Assembly: GCA_036172245.1 (NCBI GenBank)
Contig: JAYWIR010000015.1
Location: forward strand, 3,844,001 to 3,908,000
DNA: 64,000 nucleotides
Source of the DNA: Raillietiella orientalis
Taxonomy: Eukaryota
Direction of reading: 5' to 3'
Part shown: in pieces, positions 31,900 to 54,600 of the stretch
How positions within the stretch are numbered: position 1 is the stretch's first letter
Layout of the letters: the number at the start of each line of letters is the position of its first letter
Made by a program: the position numbers and the translations under genes
Notes under the pieces: model-generated
What the model was told of the DNA's origin: nothing
Databases searched by the model: none
What the model saw: the letters and a program-made list of their open reading frames with translations, nothing else

Positions 31900-33345
31900 T
31901 TTGCAGCTGCGTGACCTTCGGGACCGTGAGGCAGCGGGCATCGGAAGACGCAGCTGTCATCTGGTTTCACACCACGCAAGGGGCAGGAAAAGAGATGGAC
32001 ACAAGAAAGGATGAAGGAACGACTCTCCTTTCTCATGGCAGAAGCGGAGGGAGAGGAGGGAACAGGCACAACGCAGAGGAGTGAACCCATGCAAGTCGCT
32101 TGCTGATGCATCTTCTCAGCCTCTGTACGAGAAGAGCAAAATCTGGACCTCTTAAAAAGTACGAAGGGCTGGTCCGAAACCAGTTCAAGCATCCTTCCGG
32201 AGCGCGGCTGCCAGGAAGAGTCGCCCCGGAGAAGCAGGAAATGCATCCATGCCACGCCACAGTCTGCATCGCTCCTCCATGATGGCTCGGCGCCATGGTG
32301 TCGCGATTCCGGGTACTCCTCCCAGAAGTGCCGGTGCAAACCAGCTGGAGCAACTAGCGAATCCCGTGATCGTCAAGGTGACGCCTGCTTGGACACGAAA
32401 GGAATCCCTCTTCGGCAGCATTCTTCTCCGTTCCTTAAAAGGAGATGCAGTGACCACTGGACAGCCTAATGCGTGCTCTACCATCGCGCTCAGTTTTCTT
32501 ATCTTGATCATGGTGGTGTTTTTCCGCCTGCACCCCTTCTAAATGGATATCATCGGTTTCCTTTCTCGTAGGAAACGCGGTTCCTTGTCACCCGGTGGCG
32601 CTACAAACGGTAGTCAGTGGAACTATGCGTCCTGTCAAGTCCGAACATGCTTTGGGAGCCGGTGAGGCCTACAACATAACAGAGGGGTTAAGGGATTGAA
32701 GGGGGGGGAGGGGGGAAGGAAAAGGAAAACAAAAGCAGTCTGGTTAAATTAGGGGAAGGATCGCATCCCGCGATGTGGGATCCTCTGCATCCTTTCCAGG
32801 ATGCCCGCGAGCTCCTCTTGTTAGCTGAGCGGTGGTTCCTCCTCGACTCGACTCGATGGAACCGGATGGCACAGGGGACGGCTCATCTGTCCACTCTCGG
32901 CACCGTTCCTGGAGACGAAGGTTCCTCATAGGCAGCACGGCACTGTGACGGCGGAAGCTGGGAGACCAGGCACCTCGTACAAAGAGATTACCCAAGATGT
33001 TTAAAAGGTTGTCCACTGTGGAGGGGAGGGACGCGGAGAAACGTTTTCATGATGCCCGCAGGGCGTCCCACCGCCATCTTGCCTGACCTCAATGGGAAAG
33101 AAATTTCTAGGTGTTCCCTCCTTTCTTTGCAGTCGCGAAGGGCGCTCGACTTTCAAGCCAATCTCCGGACTTCTCAAAGCTGCAGCACGACCTAGGAACG
33201 ACTCCGAAGATACGCGCTGCTGAGCGACCGCTTCTTTATGCCGTAAGCACACATCCGACCTTCTCAATAGCAGAAGTAGAGACTTACAATCTTGGGACGA
33301 ACTTTGGTCACCATGGTCGTATTGAAAAAAGAGCTTCTCCTGCAT
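31900..33345 (-). mobile_element. BEL/Pao-like LTR retrotransposon pol relic (integrase region)
   Basis: Colinear fragments: SRLQRK...FPIEV...HHE (GRL...PI.LP...H), LSAMVEHALGCPVVT (E..LN.RPLT), HFWEEYPE...W...GRMLEL (FW..EYL...W..GRI.E). Multiple stops and frameshifts. Confidence 0.45.
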
Positions 33346-35481
33346 CTGATGCCTCCTAAGGTTTGATTAGGACATCAGATGATCAACAAACAAGAACGTG
33401 TGTGACGAGAATGAGGGAAGGTTCAGAATTGCCACTTGAACATTAATTATTTTGCTGCTCTCATTAGCAGAAGAGCACTGTTTTGTGATGCACTTGTGAC
33501 TCAGCATGTGCACCTTGCTCCTAGTTGCTGAAAGTCAGTGATACATCTGTGTATTCATCAGCCACCTTCTACCCTTGCATGTGCTCAAAGTTTCGGTTTC
33601 TCACTGCCTAGTACTTCTTGGAAGCAGGATTCAGCTACCTTGCTTGTCTTCTCTTGCTTCTCTGGTTCTGTTGAAAGAAATGCAATCGGTCGAGAGCACG
33701 CTCATTCTGTCTGCATCTTCTGTGATCCAAACTGACCTTCATTCTTTCGTGATCCTGAGATTTGAATGTCTTCATCACTTCTCTTGCATGTGCTTGCGTT
33801 CGTGAGAGCAGGACCAGGAGTTTTTCTATAAAACATGGGAAACACCACGCATCGCAACGTCTACCATGGAAATGGTTCTAAGATCTGGAGTTCGCTGGTG
33901 AGAACTTTACAGAAATTGTTTGTCAATTCCAAACGACTGAGACCTTCATTCAGCAGCTCTGCGACGCAACTTCCACGTCAACAGTCTCTTATATGCCTTG
34001 AAGTTTTCTTCAAGGCATCTTGGTTTATATGTGCAATAATTCACTGTCTTTCCTTTTTGATTCCGACAACTGTTGGTAGCGTCGTTGCCTACAAACAAGG
34101 AGCTTTCCTACACAAATGAATCGTCAGACGTTTGGACATCAGTTGGCATCCAAGTCCAAGAAGTCATCTAATGAATCTTTGATATGAACTTTTAAGTCAA
34201 AAGGTGCAAAATCCCTACCAGGTTTTATCTTAGGAGTAGCACCGAATGAGAAGCTTTTACTCTCCTTCAGCTGCCAATGAAAATTTGAATATCATAATAT
34301 AATAATAGATTTCTTCAGAAGTTCACCATATCTATGGTGCTATGAAGATTACAAATTATTGAGCTATCTCAAAGGTTTTTTTGAAATTTCATCGAAAAAT
34401 GGAAATCACGTGAATGTAAATATGTGTACTTCATGTATGTCTTCATTGCATACAATTTCCTAAAAAAAAAATCACCCTGTGAAGAGTAAGAAACAAGCAC
34501 TTTCTCATCCTCCTGCCAACTTTTAAAATGGACGATTATGCTAGTCATTTCAAGGGCTTATTTTCTAAATGAAGAGACAATAGCATTCATTACAGTATCA
34601 TGATTTCAGGTACAGATACATCTATATGCACGAATTTGAATTCCAAAACGATCACTCAATAATGATCTTCTCTGAAAAGAAAATTCCTGCAGAATTCCCT
34701 CTAAACTTTGTGCAGTAATAGCAGTTTGTTGTATTCATAAACTGCCAGCTCAGAGTCTCATGAAGAGATTCACCTTGAAATAATTTTGAATTACTATGGA
34801 TCTGTATTAATATGAAGAGATTAACTGAGTTGCCATTATTTGGGGGTTTGCACTAATCACGAATTGTTTAATTTTCCATCTTCGAATTATCACGCTTCAA
34901 AGTGAGTATGCTCGAATACAATCTCAAATAGACAAACGAATGCTTTGTAGTAAATGCCTGCAAAGGCTGCAGTTCCAAAAATGACACATGACGAACAATT
35001 CATCTGCTCAAATTCTGTCAAATTCGTGAAACGATTAAGCACTAAGGGCTGAGTAAAGCACGACTAAAAATTTTCCTGAAACCAAGCCTCCCGTCAGGAG
35101 ACAGCACTGGCACTCCTGGGTATCTGGAAACCTCTAGCGCGCTGATTCTACGGGGGCCTGGGACGACCACCCTTCCGTTGATTCTGGCAGGCGAGCGTCG
35201 CCAACGGTAGCTTTCAGTTACAGCAGTAAGTTCTAACAGCAGGGCACATCTTTTGTGAACAGGATGCAGGCGTAAAGCAGGTGCCCTCCAGTCAAAGTTT
35301 CACTGTTCACACAAACACTAATCTGGATCCAACGTGCCCGTTTCTTTTTGTGTGATCGGCTGCGAAAGTATGGGCTTCCAGTAAATCGCGATCTTAAGAG
35401 CAGCTTTACGTCCAGCGGTGACAACGGAGGTAGCAGTTGTGCATGTTTCAGTGTTTTGAGCTCTATGTCCCAGGCACCGAG

Positions 35482-36327
35482 ATGAAGTTCAAAGGCAAAA
35501 TAACAGAAATACTGTGCTTGAAGTTATTCACGAATACGTTTGTTGTGTTGTCGAAGATCTGCAAATTCTGTATCATGCGCTTCACGCAGAAAAGCTTGTA
35601 CTTTTTAATCAATGATAGCATTGCATCCGGCAATTTCTGGTTGTGGTGCGAACTGCGTCAAGAGAACATTTTCGAATATTACTGCGTTGAAGGTGTATCC
35701 AAAGAATTAAATGAAATAGTTCTCAAGGTTTCTCCGGACTTCGTCGCCAAAGTTCTGAAAACTGCTCCAATGGCCAAATCTGTGAAGCTGAAATTAACAA
35801 AGAAAGATACACCAGCCCTGAGTTTTGAAGTGGAACAGCCATCACCAACATGCCTTTCAAGGAACGTATGTCATGATATCCCCATTGAAATCGTGCATAA
35901 GGAATACTGGAGCCAGTATAAAGAGCCAGTTATGACTGACCAGCAAATCATGTTTTTCCTGCCAAAAATCAAGATCTTCAAAAATGTACTGGAAAAGCTA
36001 AAAAACTTAGGTCACTTTGTAACCATTTCTATCAATAAAAAATCATTAAAGTTGACACTGGAGACTGAGACTGTACGTGTGACCACACACTTTAATGATG
36101 TTCAATTAGCACAGAACCTTACATCAGCTGGAACAGATTTAAATAATGATGACCACATGATTACAGTGAAAGTGGATGTTCGCAAATTTCATACTTTCAT
36201 CACTTCTATTGAGAATTTAAATGCAACCAAAATCACCTGTAGCATTTCTTGTAGAAGAGGATTATATGTCTCTGTGCTTCATGATGATATTACCATACAA
36301 TACTCACTTCCTGCTGTTGATAATTAA
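35482..36327 (+). CDS. HUS1: Checkpoint protein HUS1 (9-1-1 clamp subunit), 281 aa, single coding exon
   Basis: MKFKGKI...LWCELRQENIFEYY.VEGVS...NEIVL...AKSVKLKLTKK..P.LSFEVE...R.VCHDIPI...LKNLG...LETETVRVTTHF...IQYSLPA follows the Hus1 family over its full length. ATG at 35482 follows a ccag| acceptor-like site. Confidence 0.96.
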   Translation: MKFKGKITEILCLKLFTNTFVVLSKICKFCIMRFTQKSLYFLINDSIASGNFWLWCELRQENIFEYYCVEGVSKELNEIVLKVSPDFVAKVLKTAPMAKSVKLKLTKKDTPALSFEVEQPSPTCLSRNVCHDIPIEIVHKEYWSQYKEPVMTDQQIMFFLPKIKIFKNVLEKLKNLGHFVTISINKKSLKLTLETETVRVTTHFNDVQLAQNLTSAGTDLNNDDHMITVKVDVRKFHTFITSIENLNATKITCSISCRRGLYVSVLHDDITIQYSLPAVDN

Positions 36328-36688
36328 TTATTTTCAAACACAAAAAAATGAAAACTTTTGCAACTCTTAGCTAACATCCTTTGTGTTGGTTAGATCATAA
36401 AATAGACATTCTGCTTGCCAATTAAATCAAGATCAGTCCAAAATGAACCATCCCTTGTGCAAGATATAGCAAAGTTTAAAAAATGTACTGTGCAATTAAA
36501 TTTATTCACATGTTAAAATGTTTCAAAAAAAAAAAAAAGGCAGCTTCACATTTAGCTAGTTAATGTTGCATAATATCTTATTTGAACAAAAATATAATGC
36601 AAAATAACAATACTGTATGATAACACCATGTGTACTTCGGAAGCATATTATAATGATTTTAAAAAGGTTAACTCAGATCAAACAAGAT

Positions 36689-38391
36689 TTAAGTATTTGA
36701 TGAAATGATATTCTGTAAAATATCAACTTCAGGAAGCAAGCCTTTTGGTTTTTTCTTGGATAGATACGAATTCTGCAAGTATAGCAGATGTTCCCTATAA
36801 TAATGCCTAACTGCTTGTGGCTGCTGAACCGAAGAAAACAGACTGTTACTGCAATGACAACAACCCACATGGAAATGGTAATCAGTTGGCCAAAATGGGT
36901 GCCAGTGAGATCTCTTAAAATAATTAGGCATTCCTCGCAATTTCGCTTGTTGGTTTTCTGGCATGGCAGCATTGATCTATGAAAGCAAGTTTCAGAATTG
37001 AAACTGGCACCATTTGAAGAACTTACTTTCATATTTTCCAAGTTTTTCACAACTGAGACCATTCTTTGGCCTTCATCACTGGAACTGGCAAAAGAATTCT
37101 CATTTGCAGCATTTACACCTCCAAAACCTGAGCAATATTTTTGTTTCTTTTTAATTGGGTACACACCTTCAGTTTAGTTGTGATGCATTTTGTAAAAACC
37201 AAACCAAACAATTGAATACAAAAAATGCAAACATAGTCTTTAAATTCATGTCCCAAACAGAAGACTTATGCATTAATTATTCATTCTTTCAATAACATAA
37301 TCAGCTTATATTTTATTTGGAACAGAATATAAATACTTATCAAAAATTATTTAGTCATTATGCTTTCTATATGAATCTGTCATAATCCCATCAAAAGGGA
37401 AAAATTCTTTCCTTATTGCTCAGTTAGATAACTAGAAACAATTTTTGAAATGAACAAAAGTTCAGGCACGGTAAAAGTGTTTCACAGAATGCATTCAAGT
37501 GTAAATGAAGTGCATTTTTATCACACAAACTTGAATTGATTGTACAACTTATCTTTTATTACAAATGGATTTCTTGCATCTTACCCATTTTTAGTGCATT
37601 CTGGGTAGAGATTTTATGTTTCATAGAATTTTCAAGAGCTGACTCCATAACAATGTCATATCTTGTTTCAGTTTCATCTGCAGCTCCTCCCTAAGATAAA
37701 CAAATTGCACACAGCTCTTAAATTTAACACATTGCAAACAGACTTGAAGATATTTTGACTGCATGCTTCAAGCAATATAGTAGGATGAAATGAACATGGA
37801 GATATTCATGTTCATACTACCTGTTTAAGTGCAATTGCAAATCCTACATTCAGCTCAGCAGTAATAAATAAAGTATTTAAATGCAGATGCTCACTGAAGT
37901 TCTTTTTTCCAGGGAATCTTTTGCTGATTCTCCTGTGTTATCTTTCTCAGACTGGAATTCAGAATATTCATTTGGTACTTCTTTTAAAATACATTCCTTT
38001 ATTGTTTTCTGAACTAAATTACAAAAAATTATTTAAATCTATGTTTATCAACAAAAACATTGGAACTGACAAATATTACATTTACTTCTTTTTTCTTTTT
38101 CTTCAAGAAATTCTTTAAGGACATCCTTTCCTGTTTCTGGATCTGTGATTTCAATGATATTTTTTTTTTTTACATTGGATTCTGTTTGAGGAAGCAAATT
38201 TGGCAGCATGAAAGAAACATGTCTTCTTAAAGGATGACAAACATGAGGGCGTTTAAGAAACACATGAGGAAATGGTTGATGTTCTAAAGATGATGTATAC
38301 AATTTATACACTTATATCTAGAAGACTCACCTGATATATAACGATCTGAAAAATTATATTGTGATTGAACTTGATGGGGTATCAGTCGTTT
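36689..38391 (-). CDS. Truncated eIF4G paralogue (PABP-binding and eIF4E-binding motifs only); 5' end unresolved
   Basis: GT-AG exons 38391-38331, 38283-38086, 38013-37895, 37690-37585, 37127-37027 and 36976-36689 splice into an 873-nt stop-free frame ending in TAA. It contains KKKNIIEITDPETGKDVLKEFLEEKEK and VRHYYREHLLYLQNSYLSKKKPKGLLPEVDIL. A candidate upstream exon at ~38740-38885 was not resolved. Confidence 0.8.
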
Positions 38392-40799
38392 CTGCAATTC
38401 AAAAAAATCATACTATGAAATCATGGAAAAAATAAAAAAAGATACCAATATAATTCCAAACTACAAGGATATACGGATTTGGTCTTCCGAAAACACATGC
38501 TTAAAACTCATGACAATCAGAGAATTGGGTACTTTTTGACAAAAATCACTTTCTTTAAGGGTGACCACAGTTATTACTGTCATGAATAATGAAATATTCA
38601 TTATAACTACAAATTCTTCAAGTACACAAATATGCAATCAAGCAAACGTTCCCAAACAATGAAGAATTAAGTACATCACACATATGGAGCACCCACAACA
38701 ATGAGTTTCGAAATGTACATATTACATATGCACACATACACGCAACTGCAGGCCTCAATGCTTGTGAAAGATTGCAGTTATGACGGCAACTATGCAGATG
38801 GGTATTAAATGGGTAAGGGGCTACTATACGGCAGATTGGTCTAACTGTGCTTCCATACAAAGGCATGAACAAAGTATGCATTATTCTGAATTTTTTTGCA
38901 ATATTAACTGATAATTAAAAACACAATTGACAAGCAGAAAAACGCCGAATAGGGTATCAGTTTCAAAATTTACATCCACTGATCAACTCTAATTAACTTT
39001 TAAATTATTTCACAATTACCTGATCAAAATGATTTGTTCTCTTCATCATCCGTAAAAGAAGAATCGAAGTATTTGAAGGAAGTGCCAAGTCTTGAGAAAT
39101 TTTCTCGATTATTGCTAAACATCAAATGCATGTGCAATTCAGCATGCATTTGTAGGCAGTGATTTATTTAATTTTCCTTAGAATAATGAAATCAGAAATC
39201 CAGAATATCCCGGGATCTCGAAACATTTGCTTAGGGTATGATTTAAGTTTGCTATGAAAACTAAGAATTCATACACAGGAGTTTATAATTTAAAAAAACT
39301 AAGCATTAAATCCGATATGATATTTTGAGTACTATTATATCTTTAAGTAGATAAAAGTTAAGCTCATAAATGATCTTTGCAAACATTGCTACATTTTAAA
39401 GAATAAAGGATATGAAAAGATTATTTTACATGAGATTAATGAATTTTAGATTGAATAGGGAGCCTTTTGTTTGAATGAATTCAAAACCTATAATAAAATG
39501 CTGAATCAGAATCTCATCTAGCAATCCATATCAATTAATTTTGAAAACGAAATAAATTTAACGGGGCATTCACAAGCTGTTAATTGATTCCACAAAAATC
39601 GCATATACAAAAAAAATTGAAATGTAATGAAAATCTTAATTCTAAGAAAACTGCCTTTGGTGTTTTTTTCTTATACACAATTTGTTTCTAAATTCTGTAT
39701 TATATGTTATACATATTGTAGCTAACAACGGTAACATGAAAACGTCTTCTATTAAGAGTAAATTGAAGAATTCTAAGTAATTGCTGTTTTAGGCAGTTAT
39801 ACTTATCTTGAAAAATTCAGTTAGGAAAGCGTCTCATCAATATATGAATGTTTTCCAAGAACGTCGTAACATTGTGAGCTGAATCAAAAACAAACGAATG
39901 CTGCATTCTTATTCATTGGTGTAAAAAGTAATTTTATTTTGTAAGAGAAATTAGACCTTGAAAATAATTAATAAGAAAGCAGTAAACTGTTTATGAGTCA
40001 AAAATTAAAAACCACAAGACATTTTATCTATTTTTCTAAATTTCCAATATACTAATGCATGATAACAGAAAATGCTAAATTAGCACATTGTCATTTCAAT
40101 TTTAAGTTTCTCAGCGTTCTGCCTGATGTGCTCATGTTTTCAATTTCCTTGCACCAAAAGTTTATTGCTTCACCAAAAAACCTATTACCAAAAAAGAATC
40201 TTTCCGGTAAGCCTCTTCTCGAGACTGAAAATAGATATTTTAGAAGAGAGTTTGAGATACAAGTTTGAGGGGCAGCTGATATTTACGGGAAAATAAAGCT
40301 ACCTAAGTGAACTTGAAGGCTGCTGATTTCCTGGACCTAGCTGAATATCTGTCGCTGTGAAAGCCAAAGAAATTCTTAGCACTAATTCTTAGGATCAGAA
40401 ACCTGAAAATCATTACAGGGACATCGAGATAACGATATGATACACGTATAATGTGTTTGATGCAGGATTCAGAGCTGGTTACTCTTGCCTCTGCGCTTTC
40501 ACGTACGGACTACCTTCGTCACACGGTTATTATCAAACCAGAACCACTGTAAGATCCAATTAGTGGAAGCTGGTGCTGTGATTAGGCGATTGCCTACACG
40601 CTGAAATGAAGGTCCTTTAGCTCCCTAGGCTCTCGATCTTCGCCGTCGATACAAATCTGGAACTCAGATATGATCCACTGTGTTCAAAGGCATTTTGTTT
40701 CACAATAACAGCTGACGTTACGGATGAACCTTTATGTTCGGGTTTTCCGAGTCCCTTACACGGATAGTCAGTCTTCTATGCTAACCGTGTTCATTTATG

Positions 40800-40966
40800 T
40801 CAATGTTCCTCAGACTGCTCAGTCGTAGATAAACAAAGTGCAATGCTATGGAACCCTCCAAAGTTCCGCAAGCCTTCTTCCAGGTTCATTCTCCACATGG
40901 TTTGCAAGTATCCTGCTTCAGTTTCTATGAAGCGATATGGAGGGCTGAAGCTCCGTGCATCGGGCT
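40800..40966 (-). other. Diverged duplicate of the eIF4G terminal exon (relic or alternative last exon)
   Basis: Ends CLSTTEQSEEH* versus CLSMPEQSEEH* in eIF4G. tcaatgttcctcagactgctc is identical at 40800 and 45676. It is preceded by a polypyrimidine tract and cag| acceptor in phase 1, like the true last exon (167 vs 173 nt). Confidence 0.7.
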
Positions 40967-41431
40967 CTGCGGATAGTGCCGGCGCAGGGGAAAAAAAAAA
41001 AAAAAACTCGAAGACTGTCAGTGAAGGACACCCGAAAAGGACACACTTTCCAAATAATTTTTCTTTTTCCATCTCTTGGTAACCGGGGAGAAGGAGTAGC
41101 ATAAACAGTTTAGGATGAACAAGGATGACTGTATGCTACTGTCAGCTTCTGCTCCTTACAAACTCGAGGAAGGTCGGAACCTCATCTGCTTGTGTACTGC
41201 AGCCAGGGAACTGAGTTGGCTGCATGGTGCAAGCTTCATGCACTTTTCATAAAAAGAAACGAAACCCACCAACAAATGCCAAGGGCAGCTTTTCTTTCAT
41301 TTTCAGGTTTATGTGAGACTGTGAGTTTAATAGTTTCCATGTACCTAGTGCTACTGTGCTTTGAAAATTTTCCTTAAGATTCAAAAAACGAAGAGCATCT
41401 TTAACTGTTGTTTCGTTTCAAAGTCTTGGCA

Positions 41432-41875
41432 TTATTTTTTTTTCTTTTCTTTTAACAGACTGCAGCACTCACTAGTCCCATTACAGGTCCTTGTGCTACA
41501 CCCACTCACCGAACTTTTAACATTAAAAAAATGGAGTAATTCCAAACCATCTCCACGTGACAAGCGAAAATCTAGGAGGACATTTGAACCCATGTCCAGC
41601 AGTGTAATTTTAAAGATAAGCTGCATTTTCCCTTGGTCTTGTGTGGAAATGGTCATTACTTGTGGGCAATTACACCAGCATTGATATCCTAGTTGGTCAC
41701 AAACATTCTGAAGTTCCTCCTGACTTTTAATGCCTTGCAGTGAAGTACAAATTAAGAATCGGGTCGTTCTTTTGACCAAGCAATGAAAAAAAAGGACTAT
41801 AGCCCATCTGGGTTGCCTGTTATTCAGAGCTCAAAAGTAAGTAGCTGCAGTTAACTGGTTGAGAAAAAAAGAAAT
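41432..41875 (-). pseudogene. CHEK1: Chk1 C-terminal regulatory (KA1) domain fragment, disabled
   Basis: FSQPVNCSYLLLSSE*QATQ... /frameshift in T8/ ...LVKRTTRF...CDQLGYQ...QVMTISTQD..KMQLIFKITLLDM...VLLDFRLSRGDGLE parallels Chk1 FSQP...LVKRMTRF...LVDFRLSKGDGLEF. It has an in-frame TAA, and no kinase domain was seen nearby. Confidence 0.88.
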
Positions 41876-44800
41876 GCAGATAATAGGTGCGGCCACTTGG
41901 AACTCTTTTGCCGAAAATTGATAAACCTGCCTTGAGCACATTGGGAGGAACCCATCTAGGAAATCCAGATAGCATCATCCGGCTGCTTGATGGCGTCTTG
42001 ATATTCTTAGAGAACTCTCTTTCACATCAAAGTAAGCAAATGATGCATTGCAGACCTGTTCGGTCCGCTGATTAAAGATGAAAAATGAGTTTTCATCTCC
42101 AAAACATCGCTATATTATTTTGTTAAGGTGTGTTGATTCAGCACTGAGATCATGATCACCGGCATTGAGATCCCGACATTTTTTCACTTCCATATTTTGA
42201 CTGCGTTAGGATTTGTGAGAGGGGGAAAAAAAAAAATGCTTACTATTTTATCCTTCCATCCTGTAGAAGACCAAAAACCAATCAACTATTGAAAATTTAT
42301 CGATACAGTTGTGAGTCCCATGTCGTTTAAAATTTGCTTCGAATCCTTTGAAACTTCGCGCTGTTATCCACTTTGGCGATATGACTTTTCTGGTGTGGAT
42401 TGAAAGCTTAGCGTGTTTTGTCGAGATTCTGCTTTGGGCGGTGTTGCCCTGCATTGCACAAGAACCACACGGATGTCGAGATGCCAGTGTCGTACCTTGC
42501 AGCCATCATGATGAACGGCGTGCTGAATTTCGTGACCTGTTTCCGGTAAACATATCCCACAGAGTGATCCCAACTCAAGCCAATGCCCAAAATTTGGATG
42601 AGGTGGCGAAAAGCGCCTTAACGCGTGCAGAGTTCCCAAGAAGATGAATAAAAAAATATACGTGGAATGAGCTAATGCAGTACACGAGGATTTGCAGAAT
42701 GATGCATGTAAAGCATGTTTTGCAAATCATACTGCCTACCGAAGGAACAACGAGAAGCAAAGCATTCCCTAAGTTTTTAACTACAGAGTACAATCCTTAT
42801 GACTAGAGGGGAAGTACATTGCTCAAATCTTCATCTACTGATCACGAATAGCATGAAGTGTGAACCTTTTTGGTGTTTTCAGACTTGTCGTGAGTACACT
42901 TCGTGACCATTGCCGTCCGATGCGAATTTTCTGCAATCCTTAAGGTTACAACGATCCCAATGTTCTTGCGAACGTGAAACGAGAAAGTAAATGATTGTGT
43001 CCCGCTGTCCCACCATCCTGAGGGAGCAACGGTGGTACCCATGGCAGTTCAGCCAAGTGAGTTCATTTGTTTCGATGCTTCCAAAGCACAAGGAGCCGCT
43101 GCAGTGAGGCAGAATGGCAGCAGGGCACAAAGGCAGAATTCTCTTTCCGTTCCGGCAAACGGCGCGACTTGACCAGGTACTTCGCTTCACGAACCCTCGG
43201 GCATCTCCCTCCATCATTCGCAACTCGGGCTCATGCTGCCTGACGTGGACCCCACTCGAAAGAATCTCTGGCCTCACCGGACGTTGAAACACTTGAATGC
43301 AATGCCTCGGAGATCCCTTGACGCTGCTGACTTAATGGCTAAGCGTATGGCTATTCACATAGGAAGTGCAATCGAAGAGATGTGAGGTGGTAACCTGAGT
43401 ATGGGCTACCTAATCGACAAGAACGGTAACGATACGACACACGACAGGATCAAGACTTCCATTACATTACGTGCATCGTTCAGAATGACTGCGACACAAC
43501 GGACGCGCACCGGCCTTTGGCATTTCCTTTGCATCGGGGCTAATCAACACGTGCTCCTGCTGGAAGAGGTAACAAAAAAAGTGATGACAGAAAAACGGTT
43601 TTCATTTACTTGAGCAATCGACCGGAAACCACTCGGATGTCCCAAACACATGGCATTCCAATTTTTGGCACGCACCCGGCAAAGGTCTCGAAAATTTCTT
43701 GGAAACTGGATCGCCGTGAACAGGCGGGCGCGGCGAACTCCCCCGCACTCCGGACGGCAAGGGCACATGATGGCAGACAACGCTCCCTCCATCTTTCTAC
43801 TTCAGTTCGCCGACTAAAGTGTCTATTCGTTCGGGAAACTTCCATTCCGCGTCAAAAATGCCGACTTTCCTCGGGCGAGCAGCAGTGCAAAGCAGGTCAC
43901 ACACGTTGACTCCTGGTTACTTACTGCGCTCGTCGAGTACGATCAGCGCCATTCAGACATGTGCAAGAGATGTAACCATGACGACGCCCAACTGCCATTG
44001 CTGGGCACCGTCCTCGTATTCGATATTTGTTTCCCAACGCACGGAATCTGCGTCCCGCTTTGCCCTTTGGCGGTTACACGATGAGGGAAATCTCCAGTAA
44101 TCAATCCCTCAGCTGGCGTGAACGTGTGAGGAGTCGATCTCAGTCGTATCACACGTGCACTGTGAATGACGTTTCGTCTTCCGAGATCCTTGCAATTTTC
44201 TTATGTACTTGCGTGGGGGGTTGGGGCTATGGTTGCAAGCATCAACTCCGTGGTAAATACGACTTGGTGCTGTGAACACATAAATACATATGTCTGACGA
44301 AGCAAACGGTTTATTCTCCACAGTAGAGTATCGCCTCGCAGCATCTTCCAGAACATTCAAGAGACCTTTTAAGCCTGTTGGTCGCACCGCTACCAAGAAA
44401 CACACACACAAAAAGAAAAAGGAACAACACACACGTACAATGATAAACTTTTGTATTTCAGATTCAAACAGTAAAAAAAATACTTTCCATTTTCAAAAGG
44501 ACAAATGAGCAAAAACACATCCTAGCAGAAATGCCACGCAATACAAAACAGCCTGCTGTTTCCTGGTCAGTTTGACATATTGCTGGGCACAAGAGTTACC
44601 GTATTCACTTTTACAGAAAGGTTTCGATTTACAAATTTTGGGGTTCTGCGTCAACGACACAGACTTGCGGACACACTCTTGCACACGCCCATTTTCGTCC
44701 AATTTCGTCTTTTTCGTGAGCTGTTTCAAGTGACAGCCGGTGCCACCTCGACAAGAACTCGAGGAGCTAACGAAACTTTCTGGACAGCCCACGTTCTCGG

Positions 44801-45675
44801 AACTGGAACTCAATTCAAAATCGCAACTATTTTCAGAATAGCTTGCTGGCATCGTGTCATCTATTCGCACGTGCGGCAAACACAAAAAGCAGCATGCAAA
44901 AATTTAGTTCCAGTTTAATTTTTTTTTTTTTTCAATGATAAAACAGCTAAAGGGGGCAATGAATGAATTGTGCAAATTACACACCGTAGTGATCTGCGTG
45001 TAATCACCAAGGTTACTAATTGTCAGGGTCTTATTGCTTGCACGCCTAATTTTTACCATTTCCATTACCAGCGAAGCAAACAAGAACCAGGACCAAGCAT
45101 TTTTCCTATTTCCAACACGGCGCAAAGTTAATTTTTCTTTATTCTATAAGGCTATTTACATACATTTATATGATTAAAAATGTGAAGCTTAATTAAAATA
45201 TAAAATATGGATTCTTTTCCGCATTTACACCGGTAGTACACAGAAGCAGTCCTCCTACAAAACAAAATTCGTGACGGCGGAGGCGGCGGCCACGAAAGAT
45301 GGCGACTACCCCAAAATGCAAAACTACTGTGCAAAATTTCAAAGCACACACACACGCACGCACACTTACACATACATATTAAAGTCTTTTAATGCTACGT
45401 GATTTTTTTTTTTTTTGACTTTAAAATCTGAACAAGAATCATATATCGAATACAACCACATGGTTATATGCAGAACCGGCACCACTCGTTCACTTTCATG
45501 GGGAAAATTGCAGCATCAAGATATCGGCATGTCAACAAAAATAAACGACTTTAAAAATGTATTAATATACACTGTTACTTTGTCATGTTAACTTTTTAAA
45601 AAAAGTTGCATAATATACTGTTCTGGAGACATGTCAATAAATAGCTGGGCTAGGATCACTATAACCACATTTACG

Positions 45676-48600
45676 TCAATGTTCCTCAGACTGCTCGGGC
45701 ATAGATAAACATTCAAAGAAACGGTTTGTTGATTTCACAGCCACACCCTTCCCCTCCATTTCTGATACGTCCTCCTTCCACATTTTGAAGACGTTTCCCA
45801 TCACCAAATCTTTATCTTCAAGGAATTGGAAGCAACTCCGGAGGAAGTCTAGGCACGAGAAAAAGAAAAAAAAAAAGGCAAAACAGAAAGCATGAAACAG
45901 TTTGTGCATAGCTCCAACCTTGGGGATGATCGAGGATTAAATCTAGATGCTGCAAGGCAAGCAAGCACTGGAGTTGGAAATTTTCGTCTTCGCCAAGGTA
46001 CTTTTTGAGCACGAGCTCGTGCACACTGCAAGCGTTCTCGAAGTTGTACGTTCCCCCTTCTAAAAAATCGCCAGCGTGTGTGAGCAGCAAAGTATTTAGC
46101 ACCACAGATTACCCTTTTTCTCATTTAAGGTCATAAAAACGGCACTCGTTAAGGCACGAATGAAAGGATTACTGTACTGCACATCTTTATGATGTTCCTG
46201 GAACAAAAGGAATGGATTACAGATTGCAGTAGGGTCAGTCAGTTCACATGCAAAGCCACATCCAACAGCGTCAGTATCCTTTTGACTATTCGCACAGTTT
46301 CACCAGTTGCATAAAGCAACCTCGCACAAGCAAATAGGTCTCATCAGTGTACTGCTGGCTATCCCGCAATTCCACCACCACGGGTTACTTACCACAATCC
46401 ACGTGTCGATCTCCATGCTGGAAACTGCCTTTGAAAGCAAGTTATACAAGGAAAAATAGGTGTTCGCATCACAGTGTTTGGGGACTTTACATTTGGACAA
46501 GGGTGCCTTCTGCAAATGAAAGAAAATAATAGGACAATGCTTGGTCACAAAATCCCTTCTGAGACTCACAGGTTGCTTATCACTGGGGGTACTAAGAGTA
46601 CTCGATGGTTCCTTTATCCCTTCCAGGATTTCATCTATGAAAGCCTCGGGTTTCTGTATGTTCAGAAACTTCCAAGTTTCAGGAGAAATTTCTTTGCCCA
46701 CTTCTTGCGCTTTAGCCCGATTCTTGACAAAAAACAAAAAGTTAAGTTCGAAAGAATTTTTTCCTGTTTTCCCTTTACCTCATGGGTTGCAATATATTCA
46801 AGTATGGGTTTGACGAACTTTAGGCGATTTGCTTCCTCGCCATAATCTAAATCTTTCAAGAAATTGATGGAGATAATTCCGTTGGTTATTGCTGGAGCTA
46901 CGAAAAAGAAAAAGAATTTAGTTTGCATCAGCACACATTCCAACCACACACGCTGTCGATGTACCTATGATATGTCCCAAATACATCCACAGCAACGGAA
47001 TATCAAGTTCTAAATCTGGGGCGTTACGAATAGTTTCTTGCAACCTTTGAACAGTAACTTAAATGTAACAAAATTTAAATCATTTCGCCACAACGCACCC
47101 GTCAATGTAAGTCTGCGCAGAAATCAGCTTGGCTTTGACTAGATGAGCAAGATGATAACTGCCTTCCATTCTTACTGACGCAGGCTTTTCAAGCAAAACA
47201 TTTATCATCTCTAGCACAATCGTATCTACGTTCGAAGAATGAAACTTCTCTGTTACCACTTTGCAGAATGCCTCATTCTGATGGGGAAGATTAGGGAGAG
47301 CGAAAGAGGTATAAAATTCCAGGCACACAAGCACAGGCACATGCATGCACACACACACACAGACACAAGAACTACCGTTAACTTGGTGGGGAGTAAATTA
47401 CAAATATCATCGATTATTTTTCGCAGCATCTCGTTGTCCATTTTTGCAGGCCCCTGAAAAGTCAATTCCACATTCTTGTGGGCTTCATGTGTGGCATGAC
47501 TGTTACTTTGCAACTCTGAAGAAATAAGATACGGTTTGCATAGGTTTTAGCATTTTCACGAGCTTACCATGACGTTTGATTCCTTCCATGCTTTGGCTAC
47601 GGTTTTGGCAATCGGGATGCGTATCACGGTATTTTTCAGTAAATTCTCTGCTGGTAGAACTGAAGAAAACATCATGAAATTGACGCTCTACTTTACGAAC
47701 CCATACAACACAGGACGACTTTCCACTCCATCAGCAAGGGGTGAAAAACGATTGCTAATCGTGGTTCCTTTCGCCTCTTCCTGCTTAAGCTTTCCTAAGC
47801 TGCTTCCTGAGCCCCAAGTCTGTGAACCCTTTGGAGCAAACATCACTAGTTCATATTCCTGAAAGACACGACGTTCATGATGGAGAAATTCATAACTTCC
47901 TGAAGAAAAGCAAAAACAACCATCAATTCAGACAGAACATTGACTAACAGCATTCACTGATCAGAGACTCTAATCTGGTTGTTACTGATTCATCATTGTT
48001 CATCAAAAAATAAAAAAAAAAATTCAAAGGCCTCACCTTGGGAATGTTGGGTATTTTGTTTACATCATAGCTTTCACTCTTATATGATTTGGAGCTTTTG
48101 CTTGGATGAATCCAACCATCACTTTCAGGATGAGCTATGCTAGCAAATAAAAAACGAAATAAAGTACAATTTCCTCACAGCTTCTGCTCTTCTTTCTTTC
48201 TTCAGGCTGCTTCTTTGAGCTGGTATACAATTCCATCTGTTGCTTATAAGCCTCTATCTGAGCATCATTGTGTATTTCATCAATAGTCTTTGGATTGTTT
48301 GTGGCTCTTCGAGGTTTCCAATTATTTTCCTTGAGATCAATAAGATCCTGCAGCATAAAACGCACACGGCTAGATACAGTCCGTTTATTTATGATGTTCT
48401 GAATTTGTTTGAAGTAATGTAAGCAGAAATCCGCAGAATTCTGAAAAGGCAAAGTAACTTTACAATTACCTTTGTAACATGCTGTGCATTACCTCGGATT
48501 GTTCGTTTTCCAATTCTCTGCCAATAGTACTTAGTAAATGACACAAACATTCCAGAGAATCCTCATCATCTTCATTTTTGAGCAAAAATGAAAGGCAAGT

Positions 48601-51600
48601 ATTCATAATATTTGTATTTAGCATTCTTAATTTGTACAGCTCTCCTATAAATCTAAAAAAAATCGCAAATGTACATGACATATCTATTTCCTTATGTATG
48701 CTATAAACCTTATATTTCCAAGGTATTTCCGCTTGGCCTTTTGTTTATCATCTTCATCATTAGCATTTCGTTCTTTTTCAAATTCCTGTTGGCATCTATT
48801 AAGAAGAAGCTTACGAAATGTTATTTTGTCCCTATCTACTTGAAGGACTTCCTTGCTAAGAAGTTCCTTACACATTTTGGCATACTCTACTGCAAAATTT
48901 GGTTCCTCGACAGCCTAAAAAAACAAACTGCTTTGATGCTGAATTTAAGGAATTTTCAGCAACTATGCTTGCAGTAAACCGTTTCAGAAAGATAACTGTC
49001 TTCATTGAAAATCAGACAGGGATAACAAACATCATAAATTTCCCAAACTTTTTTTCATAGATGAGCCATTTACCTTTTCAAATACCAAATTTATGATTCC
49101 TTCCAATCTAAACTGCGTATCTATTTCTAAAGCATGAATCTTATCAATTAGTGTATGGAACTTTTGTGGTGTCAACTTATTTAATATACTTCTGAACTTC
49201 TTAAATAGTGACTAAAACAGAACACTGTTAGACAATGAATCAATTAACACGCTCATTACTTGATCTTTCTCTGTCTCATTGCTTTGACGAGAGCATTTAC
49301 TGGAAGGCTTCCATGCATTCTCGGTTTCATGTAAGTCAACTTTTTCATTTAATAGGACCTTCAACTCAATAAATTTGGGAGCAGGTTTACTGCTTCTACC
49401 CTGAAGGCTTCCCCTACTTGAACGAGGCACCTAGATCCAGATAATGATTGGTCATCATCACTAATGCTGCCTACACACCATTTTGGGAGTGATCCCTGAT
49501 TTATCCAATGGAAAGCTTGGGTAGAAATCTATCGTTTCATTGTTTCTAGGAAAACTTGATCCCCTCCTTGGCACTGAAGCCTGCATCAAATGAAAACGAT
49601 TTGATATAACAATCTCCACTGGTTATAAACACGTTAGATACCTTATTAGATGACTGGCCATTTGAAAATTCCTGTTTCAATTCCTTCGGTTTTTGAATTG
49701 ACAAGAAAACGTGCTGCAAATCCATAATGAACTCCCGACTGTACTTCCTTATTCCATCAGTATTAACATATCCAACTTCTTTTTGGCATTTCACAGCATT
49801 ACTATTATCTTGCGCTTGAATAGAAGTGCTTTCACGACCATCTTTCGCTTCTTTCGAATCCTTAACATCTTTCGCTTTCGATTCCTTAACATCTTTCGCT
49901 TCTTTCGAATCCTTAACATCTTTCGCTTCTTTCGAATCCTTAACATCTTTCGCTTCTTTCGAATCCTTAACATCTTTTGCTTCCTTGACATCTTTCAGTT
50001 CTTTTGCTTCCTTGACATCTTTCAGTTCTTTTGCTTCCTTGACATCTTTCAGTTCTTTCGCTTCCTTGACATCTTTCAGTTCTTTCGCTTCCTTGACATC
50101 TTTCAGTTCTTTCGTATCCTTCGCATCTTTCAGTTCTTTCGTATCCTTCGAATCCTTTACATCCTTCACATCTTTCGAATCCTTTACATCCTTCACTTCT
50201 TTCGTATCCTTCGCATCTTTCGAATCCTTTACATCCTTCACTTCTTTCGAATCCTTTACATCCTTCACTTCTTTCGAATCCTTTACATCCTTCACTTCTT
50301 TCGAATCCTTTACATCCTTCACTTCTTTCGATTCCTTTACATCCTTCACTTCTTTCGATTCCTTTACATCCTTCACTTCTTTCGATTCCTTTACATCCTT
50401 CACTTCTTTCGATTCCTTTACATCCTTCACTTCTTTCGATTCCTTTACATCCTTCACTTCTTTCGAATCCTTTACATCCTTCACTTCTTTCGAATCCTTT
50501 ACATCCTTCACTTCTTTCGATTCCTTTACATCCTTCACTTCTCTCGATTCCTTTACATCCTTCGCTTCTTTCGATTCCTTTGACTCTTTCACTTCTTGCA
50601 CATCTACCACATCACTCACACGTGGTTCTTTATCCTAGGGAAATAAAAGGAATTAAAATAAAACGAACACGCATTCGTGTACATGAAACATCTGTTTGGT
50701 TTCATAAAGAATAGAAAGTAATAAAATGAATACTCACATCTTCCAATTCTTTAGCATTCGTAGGTTGCTGAATGATAATATCCTCTTTCATTTGATCACC
50801 CTCAAGTTGTACTTCATTTTGCACAGGTTCTTCACTTTCTACATGCAAATATTAAAGTAAGTTTTGCGGATTGTATGTATCAAAATGCACTGATCATTCT
50901 TAGAAAGAGGCATATAATATTAATTGAAAAAAAAACTACTCCGAAATGCACGACAATCACTGTACATGGCAGCCTAAATGGTTTCTCAAGATTATTGCAA
51001 AATCAGTACACTTCGAGCACGTTCTTGTAGCGCTCGGCAATACTTCAATCTTGCCAAAAATAGCATTCGCTCTATGAGCAGCAGCAATGGTAAAATTGTA
51101 CTGTTGCCAATTGGAAATAAATTTCCGAACTTCAGATTCACTGGATATTAAAATGCTATAATTGATTAAATATTCCGTGCTTTCGTGTGCAAATTTTACG
51201 CAGCTGTTAAAAGCATTACATTTCAATAATGCCTAAAAAATTTTAAATGCTCCTTTCATGGACGAACACTGATCAAAATAATTATGGGGTAATGCACGGG
51301 AATAGCTTGTTACAGGGTAAAAATTTTGAAAATGTCACAGCCAGTTCCTGAAAAACGATGTACTCAATTGAATTAATGAAGTCTAATTGGCTCAAACCAT
51401 GCGTCTATTTATAATAGAAGTTTACTGGTAATTTACAAAAAAGCGCTCGTAAACTTTAGCCTGGTATTTTGGGGATATGGATATATGTCAACTGAGAAAA
51501 AATGCATGAATCATTTTCACTGAAATTACGGTGTATTTTTGACACTATATTCTTTAATTACGAAGTTGCAGTACAACCCCCTCTCTAATATACCAGTGAC

Positions 51601-54600
51601 CTCTTAGAAGAATTTAAAAATTTGAAACACTGTAAATTGTTCACATTGTTATTCTGGTGACCAACTTGCAAACAAGATAATTTCGAAATATGGCAATAGC
51701 AGCCTAAATACCTGTGAATATTCAATACCTTAGTGATAGGTGAGCATATTCACAAAATCTATGTTCCAAGAATTACATGACTAATGAGAAAATGAAGGCA
51801 ACACACGTGCAGATACACCAAAAAAAGGCGCAAATTACGTTTGGCAAAACAGAAAATGCTAAAATTGTTTCTCCAAAAACCTGTGTAGTACCGAAGTTAC
51901 TAAAATAATACTCGACTTTGTTTATCTTAAACTCATTTGCAGATATATTCAACTATCAGTAAGTAAACTGACAAGAATGTAATGTTTATTAAAATTTGCT
52001 TATAAGATTCAACAAGGAGCAAAGAACAATTGGATATAAAATGCAGATGCAATTTCAATATTGATAGTTATTAAATTTAGAATCTGCTTTCAAACCACTA
52101 GTCTCATTTCTGAATTAGTTTTCATTTAACAAGAAATTTGACAGGAGAAATCCAGAATCAAGCAGATAAATGCTCTCAATCAGGAAATACCATACTTGAG
52201 AGACAAATACCTACTCTAAACACTTGCAGACAAGACTGGTTTGCAAAATGCTGTTCAACCAATGTGCTACTTGATAAAAATAAGTCATAAGAGTACTTGA
52301 TGGGGGCTATGAATTTTTTACATCAATGTAGAAAACAAATTTCTCGAGTTTGTACTTATATAGTTCTTGTTTTATAAGGTTATGCATTAGATGCACAGAA
52401 AATTGTACGCAAGCACACAATCATTAAATAATGCAAACAAAATTCATTGCACATGGGTTCAAAACTCACTGAACACCTACTACTAGCTTGCTTGTTGGTT
52501 ATGTCAACATAAATCAACTTTACAATACTGAAATTGAGCTTTTCGGGACCAATGAACACAAGACTTGTGATTATCCAAGACAATGAAATGCCTTTTTTCT
52601 AAACATCATTTCTAAACATCAGCTACAGGTACATCAAAACCATTACCAACTGAAGCTCTTAAAGAAAGAAAAGAAAACAAGGATGATGAAAACTTTCGAC
52701 ATAAGAAAAAATTATGGGCACACAATATGTAAAGCTAAATATGCTGGGCAGCTCAAAACACCTCCAACAAGAGGCAACTTTAATATTATAAAAACGTTTC
52801 ACGAACAAAATGACTTCTATATTCTCTCACATTCTCAATAGTTTACTTTTAGATGAATGCAATAATCCAAAGCTATTTTAAACCTGGAAGCAGGGGACTG
52901 CAACTGCAGAATCTTTCCAGAGTTACACTGCAATTTTTAAACTTCCAGGTACATAAGTCTCTTGAACTTAAATGGATTCAGTTGTAATTAACAGACTAGA
53001 AAATAAATCTTATGTGCACAAAAACATGTGAAATGAATAAATCTCTAACATGGATACCGACTCAACAAACTATTGCCAATGATCAAAGGAGTTGAGACCA
53101 TTAACAACAGCTACATATATAGACCCTCAAGCCAGGAAATCAAGAAATACGTGTATATTATCCACCAATATCCACTTACAAAGACACAGGCTTCAGAAAT
53201 TCCGTATGAATAGAACAGATGCACAAAAGACTACCACAAATAAAACATGCAAAACCTTCTCAAAGGTCCTAATAAGCTTTGGGAAATGAAATGAAATAAT
53301 ATTCCTTAGCTTGCACACAACACAAAACCAATTCATTAAATACAAATCCTACATATTTGATTTAAGGCATCAAAATTCTACAGAACATTAAATTCATTAC
53401 AGGTACACAATCTTCAAATGCGAATCGGAAAAAATGCACACCTAACTTATAGGTGCTTAATAGAAACTCACCATGAAAAATCTCAATATACAGAATAGAT
53501 TAACAATCAATGAATTTTAAGGCATAAACATTTAATGTGTAACTGAAATCATATCAATTTCATATCAAGTGCTGCTTTGAAGTAATATTGTTCACAAGAT
53601 ATGCATGGACAGAGTGAGCAAGTTTTTGTTTATTTAACAATTTTAAAGATCAAGTATAACACAAAACCACCTGTGACTACAGTCAACCTACCATTGTTGA
53701 CTCCATCCACATTAGTTCCTATCTGCACATTATCCTCCTGAGAAGTCATGACCACTAACTCATTTTTATCAACATCCTCAGAAAACATATCACTTGTAAA
53801 TTGATGTAATATATCACTATCTAAATTCATGGGTGACTGTGCATCACTAGTTACAAGAGTCATACTGGGTGTGCTTTCAACTTCAGGGAAAGGGAGGGCA
53901 TCATTAACTGTCAAAGAAGCTGATATGCTTGGCTCAAATTCAGGTAACAATAAATCTTTACTCTCCCCATAAGCTACGTTTGCCACCTGCCTTGCAAATT
54001 CTGCTTTAATGGATTCCTTGAAAAAAACGTGAAAAAATTCGTGCCATGTCCCTTACTGACACTACTTACTGATGGGAGAGAATCACATACTCCAGTTTCA
54101 CCAGAAAGAGTGTTTCCCTGATTCATTCTTTCTTTTTCCTTTTCCTCTAAAAATTCTTTCAGTACATCTTTTCCTGTATCTGGATCTTTGATTTCAATAA
54201 ATGTCTTTTTTCTTTCGGTCCTAACAGGTTCACTTGAGGAACTTGAAGTCTGGGTGATGACAGGCAATCCACGAGGCATTGTCTGTCCCACAGGTGTTGT
54301 CACCACATACATGGCAGGATTGAATTGTGCATACTCTGCTATACAAAGAACACAATCGAATTTCATCTACATTAAACTTACCAGTAATTAAAGAAGGATA
54401 ACTATACCCAGGAGTCATTTGAGAATACATCATTCTATTAGGCTACAAATAAACAATGAATCAACAACAAAGTACATCTCATTGATTTCTGAATTGGTTA
54501 GTTGCAAAGAATAGAATGAAATAAACAATGAAATAGCAAACAAACAAACAGGATAAATCTGGGATCACAATTCATGCATTATTCCATGAAATTCACTTTA

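Follow-up and report, generated by a model that had tools for sequence, protein, structure and literature searches.

The 64,000 nucleotides from Raillietiella orientalis considered here (GenBank assembly GCA_036172245.1, contig JAYWIR010000015.1, positions 3,844,001 to 3,908,000 of the forward strand; this whole stretch is called the window, and all coordinates refer to it) contain two genes derived from the translation initiation factor eIF4G: a full-length gene and a truncated paralogue, called mini, located on the same strand about 8 kb downstream. An earlier note on this DNA had proposed a tandem duplication of eIF4G with a truncated copy, and the two loci were borne out, on one strand and at this distance, by a motif scan and by the gene models. 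We tentatively interpret the locus as an eIF4G scaffold with a weakened eIF4E-binding site (4E site), accompanied by a truncated, eIF4G-derived competitor that would bind both eIF4E and PABP, a reading that we hold to be quite possible, though short of probable.

By its predicted structure, the full-length gene is an intact, intron-containing eIF4G scaffold of the arthropod type (Table 1). Its exon chain was built from stop-free segments, GT..AG splice sites, and reading phases for the N-terminal and MIF4G exons, whereas the C-terminal half was placed by homology only and not as exon models. The Pfam family MIF4G (PF02854) spans profile positions 2 to 203 of 203 over four consecutive exons, two of which pass the 30.8-bit cut-off alone (49.7 and 46.3 bits). 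For the MA3 and W2 regions, the single-exon Pfam scores were 15.2 bits (cut-off, 23.2) and 22.2 bits (cut-off, 30), respectively, and tblastn with scorpion and bivalve eIF4G gave E values of 1.7e-6 for MA3 and of 1e-10 to 9e-12 for W2. In tblastn, the eIF4G proteins of Limulus, scorpion, bivalve, and fish also aligned downstream to a SWG.GSS...NRFS region, to MA3, and to W2. The joined MIF4G domain is 43 to 53% identical to those of 16 metazoan eIF4G proteins; for the same set, the identities are 34 to 53% with the MIF4G domain of Thrips and 35 to 50% with that of an ostracod. Since the values for the full-length gene lie within this range, it does not appear to be exceptionally fast-evolving.

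Exon 5 of the full-length gene carries, just ahead of the 4E site, an in-frame 27-nucleotide tandem repeat, which encodes about 28 nine-residue units of the KDVKESKEV type; such a charged repeat insert before the 4E site was seen in none of the homologues inspected. Very short introns occur in both eIF4G-derived genes, with lengths of 61, 48, and 48 nucleotides in the full-length gene (49431-49641 and 49212-49259) and of 47 nucleotides at the mini locus (38284-38330). Reading through the donor of exon 5, which would yield VSNVFI as a second motif, was rejected as the main product: this frame runs into a stop at 49546, and phase 0 is obtained for the downstream exons only when the AAG/GTATCT donor is used. 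A second minimal match to YxxxxL-hydrophobic, YSYPSLI, is encoded in exon 1 (residues 10 to 16 of the full-length protein); chance alone would give about 0.1 matches of this kind, and with its Pro it is probably not helical.

The minus-strand translation of 49400-50100 consists of a long K/D/E-rich repeat followed by GIRKYSREFIMDLQHVFLSIQKPKELKQEF. As the earlier note had indicated, YSREFIM is present at 49723-49743, which was verified by a six-frame motif scan and by translation. The extended consensus of 4E sites is YX(R/K)X2L-hydrophobic-X2(R/K/Q), in which, on human eIF4E, the L-hydrophobic pair touches the dorsal-surface residues Val69, Trp73, and Leu131 (PMC8558276). Strictly, YSREFIM departs from YXXXXL-hydrophobic in having Ile (codon ATT, 49726-49728) at the Leu position; the rest of the extended consensus is present. 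In human eIF4G, the lateral surface of eIF4E is contacted by Leu633, Ile636, Val639, and Val640 (PMC8558276), and the lateral motif is described as increasing affinity and providing a competitive advantage (PMC8558276, PMC6061780). In the full-length protein, the corresponding columns hold Leu, a gap, Phe, and Ser and are hydrophobic in just two of four cases, and Glu and Lys, each found there in 0 of 51 family segments (see below), stand in place of the Gly and Pro in the GLP consensus. For the spliced product, the claim that this copy has no GLP..DV-like second motif consequently holds for the most part, but Leu and Phe remain. The eIF4E docking site of the full-length protein is probably weakened.

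The model of the mini gene, made from sequence alone, comprises 624 nucleotides, i.e., 207 codons plus the stop codon, in five exons. All junctions are consensus GT..AG sites with fitting phases (donors gtaaat, gtgagc, gtaaga, and gtaagt), and a pyrimidine-rich run precedes the AG at each acceptor. Two parts of the predicted protein are recognizable, namely, a PAM1-type motif near the N terminus and a bipartite 4E region at the extreme C terminus, so that the model places a PABP site and an eIF4E site on one chain without MIF4G. No MIF4G-like sequence was detected in 33000-45600 or elsewhere in the window outside the full-length gene. The peptide quoted for this copy in the earlier note, YYREHLLYLQNSYLSKKKPKGLLPEVDIL, was confirmed; YYREHLL occupies 36782-36802 of the minus strand. 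The segment that follows, KPKGLLPEVDIL, aligns at the right distance to the family consensus KPeGLP..dvv and is hydrophobic in all four contact columns (Leu, Val, Ile, and Leu). Likeness to the full-length gene at the DNA level is confined to 38090-38171 (83% to 54133-54215), and the intron positions of the two genes differ. One transcript spanning both loci was considered and rejected, as, on the strand that the two loci share, the mini exons come after the stop codon of the full-length gene.

Table 1. Features of the eIF4G-derived loci and of their surroundings in the window
Feature	Position	Strand	Remarks
Full-length eIF4G gene	45676..54433	minus	ATG 54433-54431; stop TGA 45676-45678
Full-length exon 1	54382..54433	minus	Start codon
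YSYPSLI, minimal motif match in exon 1	54386-54406	minus
Full-length exon 2	54070..54338	minus	PAM1-type motif, core 54136-54216
Full-length exon 3	53692..54016	minus
Full-length exon 4	50738..50838	minus
Full-length exon 5	49642..50634	minus	Nine-residue K/D/E/V/S repeat, then eIF4E-binding region
27-nucleotide tandem repeat, in frame	49839..50597	minus	28.6 copies; Tandem Repeats Finder, period 27, 85% matches
Full-length canonical eIF4E-binding helix YSREFIMDLQ	49714..49743	minus	Aligns to PDB 5T46 chain B
Full-length linker and degenerate noncanonical segment	49642..49713	minus	HVFLSIQKPKELKQEFSNGQSSNK
Full-length exon 6	49479..49580	minus	Includes DFYPSF; introns of 61 and 48 nucleotides on either side
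Full-length exon 7	49260..49430	minus	ENAWKPSSK region ahead of MIF4G
Four MIF4G exons	49211-49074, 48914-48709, 48652-48493, 48440-48179	minus	Pfam and splice phases
MA3-like region	about 47277-46963	minus	tblastn, weak Pfam match
W2 region	about 46024-45679	minus	tblastn, weak Pfam match
Copy of the last codons, stop, and first bases of the 3' untranslated region of the full-length gene	40792..40835	minus	44 nucleotides, 91%, exact core of 22 nucleotides; between the two genes
Candidate further upstream mini exon	38331..38391	minus	In frame with exon 1 via a 47-nucleotide intron
Mini paralogue, five exons	36689..38209	minus	38209-38086, 38013-37895, 37690-37585, 37166-37027, 36823-36689
Mini PAM1-type motif	38090..38170	minus	22 of 27 residues as in the full-length copy; DNA 83% over 83 nucleotides
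Overlapping open frames of 166 and 95 codons	36673-37173	minus	Across mini exon 4, intron 4, and exon 5
Mini canonical eIF4E-binding helix YYREHLLYLQ	36773..36802	minus	Canonical motif with R/K at position 3 and R/K/Q at position 10
Mini lateral-surface motif GLLPEVDIL	36716..36742	minus	Stop codon 8 codons later
AATAAA, candidate poly(A) signal	36501..36506	minus	183 nucleotides past the mini stop codon
HUS1 checkpoint-clamp gene, intronless	35443..36327	plus	294 codons; Pfam Hus1, E 3e-64
Carboxylesterase-family gene	24935-27557	minus	GC-rich half; Pfam COesterase, E 1e-49 on one open frame

The N-terminal motif of the mini protein, KKKNIIEITDPETGKDVLKEFLEEKEK, corresponds to one encoded in exon 2 of the full-length gene, and both copies show a PAM1-type pattern, i.e., a basic cluster followed by I.I.DP..GKD(I/V)..E. 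The same pattern was found N-terminal of the 4E site in seven of the eIF4G proteins collected for comparison, including the eIF4G3 proteins of sturgeon and electric eel and an eIF4G1-like protein of Thrips. PAM1 binds RRM2 of PABP and is assigned in a 2025 review to residues 166 to 200 of human eIF4G, upstream of the 4E site (PMC12709193, where the eIF4G domain map is also given), and the cluster KRERK at positions 187 to 191 is described as responsible for PABPC1 binding (PMC4174440). The correspondence in position and sequence suggests that the motif in the window is PAM1, with a predicted role in PABP binding. Neither the exons that bear the motif in the two genes nor the isolated full-length motif reached an eIF4G or PABP chain in searches of solved structures, the mini 4E exon reached no eIF4G chain there, and Pfam assigned no relevant family to the two 4E exons or the PAM1 exons. 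The retention of a PABP motif in mini, which had escaped the earlier note, changes the likely mechanism.

For a family-wide comparison of the two 4E sites, 1.84 billion representative proteins were searched with a MIF4G exon, yielding 1577 matches, of which the best 150 were listed; the best matches were spread over chelicerates, a thrips, molluscs, and fishes. No close relative appeared among the best 150 of the 1577 matches, where the identity in the most conserved exon reached at most 61%; a word-index search with a MIF4G exon returned six proteins at 38 to 42% identity. A search for relatives with the HUS1 protein encoded nearby yielded no match with an E value of 1e-10 or better. In 159 collected proteins, a regular expression (Y; R/K/Q at position 3; L/I/M/V/F at position 6; hydrophobic at position 7; R/K/Q/A/S/M at position 10) produced 58 matches. 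After two false matches (P0035 and P0109) and five redundant rows (P0134 and two each of the Argiope isoforms P0156 and P0157) had been left out, 51 segments from 47 metazoan eIF4G proteins were obtained, with named members from sponge, starfish, amphioxus, molluscs, chelicerates, millipede, insects, ostracod, and fishes. The comparison peptide of human eIF4G1, which the earlier note had quoted, was found to match PDB 5T46 chain B as well as fish eIF4G1 and eIF4G3.

At position 6, 50 of the 51 segments have Leu and one has Ile (YSRDFIL of Silurus meridionalis), so that the Ile of the full-length copy does indeed occupy a near-invariant Leu position, whereas mini has Leu. The following residue is Leu in 40, Met in 6, and Ile in 5 segments; here the full-length copy has Met and mini has Leu. 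Conversely, the full-length copy keeps the usual Phe at position 5 (44/51), replaced by His in mini, and Ser at position 2 (Asp in 39 and Ser in 6 of 51), where mini has Tyr. It also keeps the Asn and Gly of the N-terminal flank (29 and 28 of 50 segments, respectively), both of which mini has lost. In the GLP consensus, however, Gly (24/51) and Pro (43/51) are present in mini and absent from the full-length copy, and the four columns aligned with the human lateral contacts are hydrophobic in the family. A profile scan that did not depend on the regular expression gave a similar picture: among 178 proteins, isoforms included, it found 77 stretches in 68 proteins, with five irregular cases, and in the 72 stretches in which the motif is readable, the Leu position holds Leu in 70, Ile in 1, and Gln in 1 (an eIF4G3-like protein of plaice).

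A profile hidden Markov model of the 51 segments was also run on the 2240 six-frame open pieces (at least 15 amino acids) of the window. It retrieved exactly the two 4E sites, with 28.4 and 27.9 bits and E values of about 1e-7, followed by an open piece with 8.4 bits, which argues that the two sites are more than chance matches. The possibility of a hidden alternative exon with a canonical Leu motif was discarded on the basis of the same scan. Since the outgroups and mini have Leu, the Ile and the loss of the lateral motif are derived in the full-length lineage; the single ostracod sequence compared also has Leu (YDRDFLI). The idea that mini has the better site is correct with respect to Leu and the lateral motif but not with respect to the profile scores, which are alike, or to the odd residues at positions 2 and 5 and the lost N-terminal flank. 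As judged from these alignments, the pattern is one of complementary divergence of the 4E sites rather than of one good and one bad site.

The possible effect of the Ile can be gauged from a phage-display deep mutational scan of four peptides with human eIF4E as bait (PMC12102759, supplementary file 1). Its scores refer to short peptides without the lateral motif and to human eIF4E and are only a guide for the present species. In the eIF4G1 606-621 peptide (completeness, 0.84), the values at the Leu position were 0.434 for Leu, 0.408 for Met, 0.148 for Ile, and 0.009 for Val, with little else, and at the next position, Met reached 0.342 compared to 0.285 for Leu (PMC12102759). A full-length site that is weakened, but not dead, fits these values. 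They also agree with a different explanation, which we consider somewhat unlikely: mini might be a functional binder of eIF4E and PABP while the YSREFIM site of the scaffold is normal, its Ile being tolerated or having co-evolved. The locus would then consist of an ordinary eIF4G and an extra 4E-binding protein, with no shift of function between the copies. Ile is, after all, one of only three residues with appreciable signal in this peptide, the Met next to it is at least as good as Leu, the remaining extended consensus is present, and the family profile scores the full-length site (31.7 bits) slightly above that of mini (29.8 bits). Moreover, the lateral segment still has Leu and Phe, the MIF4G identity of 43 to 53% is in the range of Thrips and the ostracod, as for a normal eIF4G evolving at a pancrustacean rate, and the catfish eIF4G1-like protein with YSRDFIL has the same substitution. 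On the other hand, all but one of the 51 segments, which range from sponge to vertebrates, retain Leu, and Ile had zero signal in three of the four scanned peptides (eIF4G1 608-623 and two from 4E-BP1; completeness, 0.46 to 0.58) (PMC12102759). In addition, not only the Leu but also most of the affinity-raising lateral motif has been lost.

The degree of constraint on mini was estimated from the two stretches that can be aligned with the full-length gene. In the PAM1 piece (29 codons), the proportions of synonymous (pS) and nonsynonymous (pN) differences were 0.57 and 0.14, respectively; in the 4E piece (28 codons), the nucleotide identity was 52%, with a pS of about 1.0 and a pN of 0.35. As synonymous sites are near saturation, neutral drift for a comparable time should have erased both motifs, and their persistence points to purifying selection on mini. 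Gene conversion from the neighboring gene cannot account for the ancestral lateral residues that mini keeps, because the full-length copy has lost them. These comparisons suggest that mini is an old, apparently intact, and selectively maintained truncated eIF4G paralogue of at least 207 codons.

The same data bear on a further view, which appears unlikely to us: mini would be an unexpressed and decaying leftover from a tandem duplication, or from a copy of another eIF4G elsewhere in the genome, with residual likeness in the motifs, and only the full-length gene would matter. Homology is indeed recognizable in two short stretches only, the intron positions are unlike those of the full-length gene, and mini exons 2 to 4 have no homologue, their open frames of 43 and 51 codons being individually unremarkable for DNA with 32% G+C. 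The 44-nucleotide piece of the last exon at 40792-40835 further shows that duplicated pieces have decayed here. However, 22 of the 27 PAM1 residues and a 29.8-bit match in the 4E region have persisted despite synonymous saturation, the five exons form an open frame in which the splice sites follow the consensus and the phases are correct, and the ancestral lateral residues cannot be derived from the neighboring copy.

In the interpretation that we prefer, a scaffold with a weakened 4E site accompanied by a truncated competitor, the full-length scaffold would, after duplication, have exchanged the key Leu for Ile and lost most of the lateral motif, whereas the mini protein would have retained only PAM1 and a complete bipartite 4E region, i.e., the canonical helix, the linker, and GLLPEVDIL. 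Unable to recruit eIF4A or eIF3, the mini protein would compete with the scaffold for eIF4E and could tie the cap to the tail without recruitment of the 43S complex, holding capped and polyadenylated mRNAs in a nonproductive closed loop, in which they would be repressed or stored. The scaffold would retain a weaker binding of eIF4E, and initiation would thereby become sensitive to the level of the mini protein. In content, the mini protein would be an analogue, encoded by its own gene, of the N-terminal fragment that enteroviral 2A protease cuts from eIF4G. The expression of mini, its binding, the relative affinities, and the repressive outcome are parts of this scheme that we infer. A more specific version, which we regard as rather doubtful, sees in mini a natural closed-loop lock that would clamp cap-bound eIF4E to poly(A)-bound PABP and keep mRNAs protected but silent with no recruitment of the ribosome, e.g., maternal mRNAs or those of dormant stages in a crustacean, the scaffold site having been weakened so that the lock wins when expressed. 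No gene-encoded counterpart of the repressive N-terminal eIF4G fragment made by enteroviral 2A protease would have been known before such a lock. Subfunctionalization after duplication, as put forward in the earlier note, is not borne out. Cap-dependent recruitment requires an eIF4E site and MIF4G on one chain. Duplication-degeneration-complementation does not fit, because a good 4E site on a chain without MIF4G cannot rescue, or complement, a scaffold with a poor one; a role of mini as a competitor or regulator, i.e., neofunctionalization, would be the coherent version.

Several points weigh against this interpretation. Tyr at position 2 and His at position 5 of the mini helix each occur in none of the 51 family segments, and in the best-covered peptide of the deep scan, His at position 5 scored 0.0008 compared to 0.098 for Phe (PMC12102759). 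With such a near-zero score, the canonical helix of mini may itself be weak; natural eIF4G-like proteins with Glu or Gln at position 5 do occur in the compared sample. The profile scores the two sites alike (31.7 versus 29.8 bits), and the zero signal of Ile in three of four peptides means that the scaffold site could be far weaker than tuned, or else the eIF4E of this species may have co-evolved. No close relative emerged from a protein-library search with the full-length 4E exon, in which no candidate shared three words. The start codon of mini is uncertain and may lie further upstream, given the in-frame candidate exon at 38391-38331, and exons 2 to 4 lack a homologue. The selection test rests on just 29 and 28 codons, and a more recent, unseen donor elsewhere in the genome may make mini younger than it appears. 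Finally, the two overlapping long open frames across mini exon 4, intron 4, and exon 5 are unexplained: by base composition, the longer one, of 166 codons, is expected with a probability of about 1e-6, and that of 95 codons holds a hydrophobic stretch of 20 residues.

Two further explanations appear less plausible still. The Ile could reflect a rare allele or a mistake in sequencing or assembly, since a single base separates ATT from the Leu codon CTT, or the pair could be a tissue-restricted set, for instance of the germline, with a housekeeping eIF4G encoded elsewhere; fishes and spiders do have eIF4G duplicates that are lineage-specific, change rapidly, and bear repeated or altered 4E motifs. 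We judge this improbable, as the loss of the lateral motif takes many substitutions and no single error would account for it, and as the divergence of MIF4G is not exceptional. True subfunctionalization, with mini providing high-affinity eIF4E binding and the scaffold providing eIF4A and eIF3, would agree with the complementary degeneration of the two sites (N-terminal flank and Phe 5 kept by the full-length copy, Leu and lateral motif by mini) but is highly improbable, as it would need cooperation of the chains, a special eIF4E paralogue, or cap independence, nothing in the two sequences hints at binding between the chains, an eIF4E site and MIF4G are needed on one chain, and an N-terminal fragment alone is described as repressing rather than helping (bioRxiv 10.64898/2026.04.06.716749).

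Both eIF4G-derived genes are located on the minus strand in the AT-rich half of the window, whose G+C content switches sharply at about 32000-34000 from about 60% (1 to 32 kb) to 30 to 42% (34 to 64 kb). Between the genes, no eIF4G remnant was found beyond the 44-nucleotide tail copy. The likeness of this copy to the end of the full-length gene breaks off abruptly on both sides; this piece may be what is left of a third copy. The intronless HUS1 gene converges on mini, the 3' ends of the two lying within about 360 nucleotides of each other; its neighbors have many tiny introns, and it is possibly a retrogene. The carboxylesterase-family gene lies in the GC-rich half.

Whether the closed loop of cap, eIF4E, eIF4G, and PABP promotes translation or may also repress it is an old question. 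If the reading of the locus as a scaffold with a weakened 4E site plus a truncated competitor is true, a gene-encoded fragment beside a drifted scaffold would provide a natural test system for closed-loop repression and would show an initiation factor giving rise to its own competitor. If the mini locus is not expressed, a modest curiosity would remain, namely, a rare Leu-to-Ile variant of eIF4G. No prior description of an N-terminal-only eIF4G paralogue was found in the limited collection of literature searched.

Among known systems, human eIF4G1 in complex with eIF4E (PDB 5T46) and the metazoan eIF4G1 and eIF4G3 proteins in general are closest to the full-length gene, with which they share the order PAM1-type motif, 4E region, and MIF4G, followed in the full-length gene by putative MA3 and W2 regions; the full-length copy differs from them in its Ile, in having two rather than four hydrophobic lateral contacts, and in the 28-unit repeat before the 4E site. 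Lineage-specific duplicates are found in other animals, namely, the YSRDFIL protein of Silurus meridionalis (P0049), an eIF4G1-like protein of Trichomycterus with three 4E motifs (P0101), and an eIF4G3-like protein of Argiope with two 4E motifs and two MIF4G domains (P0007). These are predicted long single proteins, possibly merged tandem genes, and not a separate gene for an N-terminal part only; moreover, the Silurus protein keeps an intact lateral motif, unlike the full-length copy. Several predicted homologues from spiders, fishes, and others (P0007, P0008, P0019, P0022, P0049, P0101, and P0129) have a doubled MIF4G, a doubled PAM1 motif, or two or three 4E motifs. Unless these are merged tandem genes, eIF4G modules thus seem to undergo tandem duplication recurrently.

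Mini itself resembles several translational regulators. The bipartite 4E-binding proteins (4E-BP1/Thor, Cup, 4E-T, Mextli, and the yeast proteins p20 and Eap1p) likewise combine a canonical helix, a linker, and a lateral motif without MIF4G, and they are reported to compete with eIF4G (PMC8558276, PMC6061780). Mini differs from them in being a recognizable eIF4G paralogue (29.8 bits) that bears an eIF4G-type PABP motif. No such motif is known from the bipartite 4E-binding proteins. In eIF4G2 (DAP5/p97), eIF4G has also given rise to a truncated paralogue, but a reciprocal one, which has kept MIF4G, MA3, and W2 but no site for PABP or eIF4E (PMC12709193). The fragment 2A-cpN, which enteroviral 2A protease produces from human eIF4G1, shares with mini the PABP and eIF4E sites in the absence of MIF4G; it is described as a potent dominant repressor that must bind eIF4E and PABP simultaneously and forms a dead-end closed loop (bioRxiv 10.64898/2026.04.06.716749). 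Unlike this fragment, mini, known here from its sequence only, has a gene of its own and does not depend on proteolysis. Going by the position of the human cleavage site, mini is presumably much shorter than 2A-cpN.

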